The notes under the pieces were generated by a model, which saw only the letters and a list, made by a program, of their open reading frames with translations, had not been told where the DNA came from and ran no database searches. A stretch of DNA of 58,517 nt, counting the filler, from Sluysia triapertura (Eukaryota): assembly GCA_046118255.1 (NCBI GenBank). It is 5 parts of 5 records of this genome, joined end to end, with 100 filler letters (N's around TTAATTAATTAA, not from the genome) between each part and the next. Parts side by side here need not be neighbours in the genome. Positions count along the whole stretch, not along the records: positions 46,850 to 58,517 come from JBJNIA010182027.1; 4 more parts are not named here. The stretch is one strand, 5' to 3'. Within the stretch, counting starts at the first letter, position 1, and each line of letters begins with the position of its first letter. Below, piece by piece: positions 55,913-58,375 of this stretch. The position numbers and the translations under genes were made by a program.

Positions 55913-56863
55913 TCAAGAGCTAAAGTTTCAGAAGATAAAAAGGAATCAGCATTAATAGATAAGTTTAAAAATGAGCTAAGTCCCGAATTAGGAATTTATG
56001 TGTGTTTAATCGATAATTTACCATTTAGAGATATAATTAGGAAAGTAAAAGCTATTGAACGAACCGGAAAGAAACAAAGAAATAACGTAAATTATATAGA
56101 CGATGATACTAAGACTAAAGGTGTAAGAAGTAATGAATTTTCTAAACAAAAATATAAGAATTCTTTTGAAGATAATAGTTTTAATAATAACAGTGTTAAT
56201 AATTTTTGAGGAAATAATAGAAATACGAATAATTTTTTAACAAGAAATATCGCAAGGAGAAATTATATTAATACGGGTAGAAATATGAGAGGATTCGGGA
56301 GAGTACAGCCAAATAGTTTAGTTTCAAGAGAATATAAACAACGCCCATCACCAAGTTGGCCTGATAATAATAACGGTTTTTCTGTAAAGTCTAATTTTAA
56401 TGAAGGTAATTATAAAATACGAACGAACATAGAAGGAAATATAATCTGTCATAATTGTGGTAGGCATGGACATTATGCTCGAAATTGTAATAAACTAAGC
56501 CCAAACACTTTTAAACAAGACTTAAATAGGATGCCAGAGGCTAGACAAGCTTCGCCTAGGAGAGTAAGATTCGATAAAGATAGGAATGACGGACAGATAA
56601 ATTGTAACTACGATAACTATAACAAGGAGTACGATGGGTATGAATATTATGGACATCCACAGAGATTAACGGACGACAAAGAGATGTTAAGGAAGTTCCG
56701 TAGGGAAAAAATGGATAGTGCTGAGAATAAGGAAGGAAGAAAACAACCAAAAAGTAAACATGATGATGAGGAAGACATGTTTATTAATTACTTAAATGAA
56801 TGTTTTATGCAATTAGTAAAGGAGATGGAAAAGAAGGACAAAAGAAAAAAGAACAAAAACTGA
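55913..56863 (+). pseudogene. gag: Ty3/Gypsy-type Gag remnant with CCHC zinc knuckle
   Basis: LIDKFKNELSPEL..FRDIIRKVKAIE (capsid C-terminal-like) and CHNCGRHGHYARNC (CX2CX4HX4C); interrupted by stops. Confidence 0.85.
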
Positions 56864-58139
56864 AGATATTAAAGATATTAAACAACTGGAGGAGGAAAGA
56901 AAATATGCCGAAACAATAGCGAGTAGATGGATGAAGGACAACGGTATAACCAACGACGAGGAAAAATAAAAAAGGAAACAATATTAAGAGATATTGATTC
57001 CCTGTTCGAAGAGGAAAGTGATGACACAGATTCAGAACCTATAATTATTTTAGGAAACGAAAAAGAGAGTAATTAGTGTGCTACACAGAAACCCACATAT
57101 AACGATTTAATTAAGAGAGTAGATATATTTCTCTCAAATTTGACTAATGACGACGATATCGATAAAAACTTAGATATACTTTATAAAATGAATTTAGATA
57201 TGTTTAATAGGCAAAGTATTAGGCCAAGCTTACTGTACTTAAGTCAGGCAGTTAACCCACATAGTCTTAAAGTAAGACAATTATTGAGGAAAATAGGTTT
57301 AGCCGACAGGATAGAACAGCCGGACACTTTAATGAAAATTAATGTGTTAATTGATGAATTAGTGGATTTCTTCTTGGATTTACTACATTAGTAGAAAATG
57401 CATTAGACATAATGAGATTAAATGATCAGACAGTAGTAGATATTCAATTATTTTTTCTTAACAGATATTTAGAACCTAAAGTATTCCTAATTGATTATAA
57501 TTATCCTACAAGTGATCATAGTGAAATAATAAAAGCAGTACTTATATGTAAAACTCCTAAAAGTAATGGAACAGAAATAAATACAAAAGATAATGATTCC
57601 CCACGTCCTTTTTACGAAAGTTAATGGAAGAGGATGATATAGAAAATAATGAAAATAATACAAAAGTTGATATTGATGATGATATAAGAATTGAAAATGA
57701 TAAAAATAATGAGAAACCCGATTATATAGTATATTTTAATAAGAGTCCACATATAGAGTCAGCTGATAAGGAAATAAATATATTAAAAAGAAGGCCTGGT
57801 CGGCCAAGAAAATATGAAAACGGGTCATCAGCAATACATAAACGATGAAACTGATGATGAAATTAAAATAGATATTAAGGGAATAGTTTATGCATTCTTA
57901 TCCGATAAGTTCACTAACTTTAATAAATATAAGAAATTACTAGGAGAAATAAAAAAGGAGTGTAGAGTTTCTATAAGCTAGTAAAATAGTTTGAAGAAAA
58001 ACATAAAGATAAAAACATCAGTGACTTCATAGATACTGAACAATATAAATTAATAATAAATAAACAAATTAGTAAAGGAATCGATAAAGAAAAGTTTAAA
58101 ATAATTTTGGCTTACGTTATATATCAATGTAATCAAGAG
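56864..58139 (+). pseudogene. Degenerate homolog of the 20901-22757 polyprotein (unknown domain, AT-hook, Bcl-2 N-half)
   Basis: NDQTVVDIQLFFLNRYLEP..DYNYPT, KPDYIVYFNKSPH..KRRPGRPRK and ISDFIDTEQYKLIINKQISKGIDKEKFKIILAYVIYQC all align to copy 1. Confidence 0.9.
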
Positions 58140-58375
58140 AAAGCAGAAATGAATTATTCTACAATAGAAAGAGAGGGTTTAGCAGTAGTATATGCATGCA
58201 ATTTGTTTAGACATTATTTGTTAGGGCAAAAAGTTTATTTATATACAGACCATAATGTACCTGTATAACCATAGAGATGAAGTTAGTAGACTAAATAGGT
58301 GATTTAACAAACTATCAGAATTCGATTTAGAAGTTATCTATAAACCAGGTTCGCAAAATATAATTTTCTGTCAGG
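58140..58375 (+). pseudogene. pol: Ty3/Gypsy RNase H fragment
   Basis: KAEMNYSTIEREGLAVVYACNLFRHYLLGQKVYLYTDH, then SRLNR*FNKLSEFDLEVIYKPGSQN. Confidence 0.92.

Follow-up and report, generated by a model that had tools for sequence, protein, structure and literature searches.

Errantiviruses and retroviruses are LTR elements with gag, pol and env, in which env is encoded downstream of pol, usually in a spliced open reading frame of its own. A different arrangement is known from the giant planarian Gypsy elements called Burro or GYPSM1 (Jurka 2007 and Grohme et al. 2018, as cited in PMC6431247), in which gag is followed by BCL2 directly before a mononegavirus-like env, with pol continuing in frame, as published in 2019 in the Burro section of Arkhipova and Yushenova (PMC6431247). 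The same section notes a ubiquitin-like (Ubi/SUMO-like) domain in Burro and mentions that Dugesia japonica contains Burro fragments in a state of decay. BURRO1 is treated as an abundant active element in PMC8532177, and its B-IAP cargo (RING + BIR) is described in PMC13465017 as guarding stem cells against caspase-mediated death (Lee et al. 2026, Dev Cell); passages of a preprint on a Dugesia genome do not mention Burro.

The window, that is, the whole stretch of 58,517 nucleotides of Sluysia triapertura DNA that was analysed, is AT-rich (GC 22-31% per 2 kb) and contains nine runs of N, none after position 46849. It includes a host-like open reading frame for a C-type lectin with a hydrophobic leader (41980-42564, plus strand; PF00059, E 6.2e-8) and a frame with a weak match to a UNK-like CCCH zinc finger (47870-48232, minus strand; PF25427, E 1.5e-4, below the cut-off), which is perhaps a host exon. 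Two tRNA-like copies at 2486-2558 and 49577-49696 are 90% identical (Rfam tRNA, 33 bits at 49577-49647) and likely represent a tRNA-derived SINE.

Two regions of the window resemble Burro. Copy 1 (20339-22757, minus strand) is a single frame of 618 codons with half of a ubiquitin-like domain (Ubl), an AT-hook-like motif, a Bcl-2-like domain, a hydrophobic leader and env, which then breaks. Copy 2 (55901-58375, plus strand) leads from a piece of the Gag capsid through a CCHC knuckle, a module common with copy 1, an AT-hook-like motif and part of a Bcl-2-like domain into RNase H, and is, with considerable confidence, a dead Gypsy LTR retrotransposon of the Burro type that has likely undergone an internal deletion. 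All parts named in a preliminary description of the locus (CCHC, copy-1-type domain, AT-hook, N-terminal half of Bcl-2, and RNase H) are present where it had placed them. That description also implied that the order of the domains was novel; the unusual arrangement does exist but is no novelty, having already been published for planarian Burro elements (PMC6431247), so that the locus is no discovery in itself and copy 2 is a previously unreported, decayed member of the Burro-type elements.

The two copies are connected by four collinear matches (57382-57600, 57600-57812, 57838-57954 and 57975-58148; summed E 3.6e-40, tblastn with the 618-aa frame of copy 1), which include the AT-hook-like motif. 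Their DNA is 66-67% identical, and identity by codon position (37, 37 and 23 of 49) places the differences mostly in third positions, suggesting that the copies belong to two lineages and did not arise by a recent duplication, as expected for lineages that were once active. Copy 2 has undergone at least five frame changes between Gag and RNase H where homology reveals them (near 57390, 57600, 57835, 57970 and 58250) and contains in-frame stops at 56207, 57074, 57987 and 58300. The earlier claim of one open frame therefore holds for its last 92 codons (57990-58268), which lead from Bcl-2 into RNase H, but fails upstream, where frameshifts and stops interrupt the reading frame.

The Gag region of copy 2 begins with the C-terminal part of the capsid (55901-56206), the sole match among 1147 frame segments to a profile of the capsid regions of five relatives (E 1.5e-4). 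Because the match covers only profile positions 114-162 of 167, only this part of the capsid is present, and the N-terminal part was not found in copy 2. It is followed by an N/R-rich nucleocapsid region with a charged linker (56210-56860) and one CCHC knuckle (56447-56488; PF00098, E 7.4e-5), which also matches the knuckles of three relatives (P0006, P0026 and L003). About 200 nt before the Gag piece, at 55714-55732, the sequence reads CA, then T, then a stretch starting with TGG, a layout that we take to resemble an LTR end and a primer-binding site; if so, a second deletion took the 5' part of gag. No LTR pair was found, nor any long direct repeat in the window or in the relatives L001 and L002, and the score of an LTR match between the sequences upstream of copy 2 and downstream of copy 1 was reached by 2 of 100 shuffles.

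The domain that the preliminary description had left unnamed (57077-57540, with a frameshift near 57390, delimited by alignment to relatives) is a four-helix unit followed by a Ubl, according to a fold modelled for the relative P0006 and transferred by alignment. The corresponding part of P0006, modelled with AlphaFold on an eight-row alignment (pLDDT 85.7), has four helices and then a beta-grasp. The beta-grasp gave 176 Foldseek matches with E no higher than 0.001, resembles ubiquitin, SUMO and ISG15, and superimposes on the ubiquitin fold with Z 12.7 and an rmsd of 2.1 over 77 residues. In copy 1, only the C-terminal half of the Ubl is preserved (22569-22757, minus strand), recognised by its collinear match to copy 2 and cut by an assembly gap at 22758. 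Taken together, the pieces in the window align in register with five relatives over 91-138 columns (hhalign), a score that none of 150 shuffles attained, whether the mode was local or global; taken singly, they match weakly, with 4 and 11 of 100 shuffles reaching the score. A Ubl search of 1147 window frames ranked the piece first at only E 0.057, and another search gave nothing significant. Atlas searches returned ubiquitin-like leads for P0006, all under 0.9, and no match for the helical frame of the window.

A resemblance of the four-helix unit to domains of the TFIIS-N/LEDGF type was considered, but such an assignment found no support from Pfam or PDB profiles. Pestivirus ubiquitin insertions provide a precedent for a Ubl that serves as a cleavage tag, and entries for such insertions appear among the fold matches. 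As none of the aligned domains ends in di-glycine, this role was dropped.

Downstream of the Ubl, copy 2 continues with an acidic linker and the AT-hook-like motif (57597-57845; 48% identity to copy 1 over 71 aa). The motif itself (57789-57812) has no Pfam match in copy 2 and is one that we take to be an AT-hook; the same motif occurs in six relatives (P0005, P0006, P0008, P0009, P0112 and L003). The adjoining Bcl-2-like domain (57838-58139) is represented by its N-terminal part and ends after a BH1-like helix; its last stretch, residues 1-49 of the frame 57990-58268, is 55% identical to copy 1 (E 8e-17). In copy 1, an AT-hook-like motif (22239-22265) precedes a complete Bcl-2-like domain with a BH2 motif, both on the minus strand (21702-22265 together). 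The assignment to Bcl-2 is based on a match of the family profile to Bcl-xL (E 1.3e-5) and on the predicted fold of copy 1 (pLDDT 75.6), for which every one of the 40 Foldseek rows listed belongs to Bcl-2, Bcl-xL or Mcl-1, the best at E 3e-3 and none of the 40 reaching 0.001. The domain of copy 1 matches PF00452 at E 0.0024, below the curated cut-off, and is also recovered by a profile built from relatives only (E 2.4e-7).

Copy 1 provides the link to env. As the preliminary description had stated, env directly follows Bcl-2, and the two share a frame: a hydrophobic leader and a fusion glycoprotein of the Monjiviricetes type occupy 20339-21656 on the minus strand (PF24664, E 4.3e-23 and 5.1e-17). 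The glycoprotein is broken near 20900 and 20630, ends at about position 411 of the 653 model positions, and aligns to that of P0001, P0112 and L001-L003. Env is absent from copy 2.

The complete order is preserved in relatives of the two copies. Queried with copy 1, a set of 1.84 billion representatives yielded 111 matches, of which 23, picked for length or for a match upstream of env, were scanned; PF24664 is present in 22 of these, and in the five that also contain RT and RNase H, both always follow env. Among all nine proteins with both env and RT/RNase H (P0004, P0005, P0022, P0026, P0094, P0112, L001, L002 and P0135), env comes first, and the order gag-pol-env is not represented. Intact relatives thus bear out the prediction of a single polyprotein in the order gag-Bcl2-env-pol, and they retain the junctions between env, protease, RT, RNase H and integrase; neither copy in the window retains the junction between env and pol. 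Scans of metagenomes with the copy-1 protein and of viral contigs with the env alignment recovered no relatives.

The most complete example is L002, whose single frame of 3703 codons encodes Gag, CCHC, Ubl, a degenerate Bcl-2-like domain, env, protease, RT, RNase H and integrase (CCHC at 356, Ubl at 848, Bcl-2-like domain at 1047-1149 with a domain E of 3.4e-4, RT at 2448, RNase H at 2694). It has two knuckles and two helical-Ubl modules (residues about 520-655 and 765-917). The order in L001 is Ubl, Bcl-2, env, protease, RT, RNase H and integrase. The 5' layout of P0006 and L003 is that of the window: P0006 (1130 aa; window match from Gag to env) has CCHC at 197, the Ubl, the AT-hook-like motif at 585, a BH1-like helix at 693, BH2 at 741 and env at 810, and its offsets from the knuckle (+240, +310, +388 and +496) are close to those of copy 2 (+270, +335, +450 and +543). 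In L003, a single in-frame stop (3058-3060) between Gag-Ubl-Bcl-2 and the env leader reflects decay or, possibly, regulated read-through. Four relatives (P0001, P0004, P0009 and P0026) have one or more knuckles before env and no Bcl-2 match, which makes Bcl-2 optional cargo and env before pol the trait of the family.

Several relatives (P0009, P0112, L001, L002, P0005 and P0150) have more than one aspartic-protease-like domain per chain, with two or three in L002 and L001, six stretches in P0112, and one located after the integrase in P0150. A separate open reading frame downstream of pol in L001 (10617-12107, E 1.4e-5) and L002 (12085-13473, E 1.1e-3) matches exonucleases of the RNase_T family and lies beside a coiled-coil-like open reading frame; the window contains no remnant of the exonuclease. 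P0004 (HBK71150.1) and P0153 are labelled as proteins of bacterial MAGs (Flavobacteriaceae and Turicibacter) and probably represent animal DNA binned into bacterial genomes.

The RNase H of copy 2 (58140-58375) is of the Gypsy type and comprises the C-terminal two-thirds of the domain, interrupted by a frameshift near 58250 and by a stop at 58300. Residues 47-89 of the frame 57990-58268, which remains open across the join near 58140, match RT_RNaseH (PF17917, E 5.7e-12), and the piece is 67-69% identical to L002 and L001 over 36 aa; as a query for homologs, its 42 aa returned no candidates. Base composition is alike on both sides of the join (A 0.44/0.39, C 0.11/0.11). Judged against the distances in L002 and L001, copy 2 lacks about 4.9-6.2 kb between the BH1-like helix and RNase H. 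A single deletion of about 5-6 kb, with loss of BH2, env, protease and RT, probably joined the two. The internal deletion claimed in the preliminary description is consistent with this spacing, but the placement of the RNase H on which it also depends is not statistically firm.

The open frame across the join might be taken for a functional chimeric or domesticated gene, but such a gene is hardly credible: a stop at 57987 lies just ahead, no ATG precedes the junction in this frame, the N-terminal third of the RNase H is missing and its frame changes near 58250, and a join is in frame in one case out of three. Chance would thus explain the open frame, which would give rise to no protein. It is also very unlikely that the junction is an artefact created by joining two repeat-derived pieces of contig. 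Repeats are prone to misjoins in assembly, the junction is known from the assembly alone, and this assembly is scaffolded with gaps, including the N runs elsewhere in the window; moreover, the junction lies 377 nt from the window end. On the other hand, there is no N run from 46850 to 58517 and no evident long word shared at the join, and both sides are decayed and differ from copy 1 to the extent given above, so they should be unique enough to assemble.

It appears improbable that the junction is real DNA but of mixed origin, with recombination or a trimmed nested insertion having brought a Burro-type 5' part together with RNase H from a different Gypsy family. Both parts lie on the same strand in the expected order, and the RNase H shares 73% nucleotide identity with L002 over 111 nt, which argues for a common origin. 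A related RNase H remnant at 33839-34035 (minus strand) lends the fusion some weight: it is 74% identical to 58203-58348 over 150 nt (a score reached by none of 100 shuffles) and stands alone, with no match to the Bcl-2 side upstream (11 of 100 shuffles reach the score).

A phylogeny of RT and RNase H speaks for both sides. The underlying set, the best 120 of 7259 matches to the RT of L002, favours the kin of L002 and limits the outgroups. Among the 126 of 234 proteins with a full RT and RNase H stretch, the 13 best scorers to the copy 2 fragment all fall within a clade of 23 rows (support 0.97) that holds all nine env-bearing proteins. When all 128 rows are included (FastTree), the window fragments are placed among long, broken rows outside the env clade, with a support of 0.24. 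In an IQ-TREE analysis of 45 rows (22 clade rows and 22 random ones of 78 clean others, leaving out rows with <45% identity or >=25 gaps, the duplicate P0113, and the remnant at 33839-34035), the copy 2 fragment is nested in the env clade (SH-aLRT 98), but a placement outside the clade also passes the AU test (p 0.43). Its four nearest neighbours (P0153, P0158, P0143 and P0145) are pol-only pieces. Since the RNase H piece comprises only 66 alignment columns, the tree itself leaves room for a fusion of two elements. A common family for the RNase H and the Gag-Bcl-2 side is favoured, though not proven, and the order gag-Bcl2-env-pol stands on the relatives whether or not copy 2 is a fusion.

The intact element would thus have encoded Gag, the four-helix and Ubl module, the AT-hook-like motif, the Bcl-2-like domain, a mononegavirus-like env, protease, RT, RNase H and integrase in one frame. 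All relatives have a hydrophobic leader before env and a second hydrophobic segment at its end. By analogy with viral polyproteins in general, the chain may enter the ER membrane at the leader, so that env comes to lie in the lumen, and cross back behind the C-terminal membrane segment of env, which would return protease and RT to the cytosol; signal peptidase and the protease of the element could then release the Gag-side products, env and Pol. Because the leader is present also in members without Bcl-2, it should be first of all the signal of env, and a second role as an anchor for Bcl-2 is hypothetical. The Bcl-2-like domain may serve to keep the host cell alive while the element is active, a survival role proposed by analogy with the BIR/RING cargo of Burro1, as described in PMC13465017.

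The main use of the locus is as a pointer to many unnamed, intact relatives with mixed cargo, in which Bcl-2 is present or absent, Ubl modules number one or two, proteases one to several, and an exonuclease may follow downstream. They would allow a description of the clade and its hosts and show whether Bcl-2 has the survival role reported for the IAP domain of Burro1 (PMC13465017).

With errantiviruses and retroviruses, these elements share gag, pol and an envelope gene in an LTR element, but here env is of the Monjiviricetes type (PF24664) and lies inside the polyprotein before pol, preceding RT in all nine relatives instead of forming a separate open reading frame after pol. The likeness to Burro as described in PMC6431247 encompasses Gag with CCHC, a Ubi/SUMO-like domain, a BCL2-like domain and a mononegavirus-type env in frame between gag and pol; the window has Gag with CCHC, a Ubl upstream of BCL2, the BCL2-like domain and, in copy 1, the in-frame env after BCL2. 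No named Burro is among the matches; the trees favour, without compelling, a grouping of the RNase H of copy 2 with unnamed env-bearing relatives. The very low GC content (22-31%) and the family to which the copies belong suggest a planarian (triclad) host. The Burro section of that paper does not mention an AT-hook, a four-helix unit or the exonuclease of L001 and L002, which may be described in Grohme 2018, Lee 2026 or the supplements.

The differences concern size and cargo. Copy 2 has one knuckle, compared with two or three reported for Burro, and only about 540 codons from the knuckle to BH1; the polyproteins of the relatives measure 2100-4800 aa, compared with 4873-5140 aa given for Burro. 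Burro1 proper is described as giant, with long LTRs and an open reading frame of about 4900 aa, whereas both window copies are fragments. The space between the knuckle and the Ubl of copy 2 leaves little room for cargo of the Burro1 type (MATH, BIR/RING, ankyrin and Smc-like), and its three forward frames have no Pfam match to MATH, BIR, RING or ankyrin; ankyrins are present in the relatives P0112 and P0150. Burro is reported to have a dUTPase-like domain between protease and RT, a region missing from the window; in L002, it has no Pfam or PDB match and aligns in register, not significantly, with a dUTPase. The window copies and the B-IAP of Burro1 have in common an anti-apoptotic, host-type domain carried by the element, but the cargo of Burro1 is RING + BIR (PMC13465017) and that of the window a candidate Bcl-2-like domain in two broken copies. 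The two copies have the look of a compact family or branch of the Burro type and are filed as such, not as Burro1. Tentatively, Burro could represent only the largest members of a broad, modular clade of Gypsy elements with env inside the polyprotein, which may reach beyond planarians; the window would then represent a compact branch that bears the four-helix and Ubl module, the AT-hook and Bcl-2 on Gag. In this branch, a single hydrophobic segment would act as signal peptide of env and also as membrane anchor of a Gag-Bcl-2 product, and the element would thereby prevent the death of the cell where it buds.
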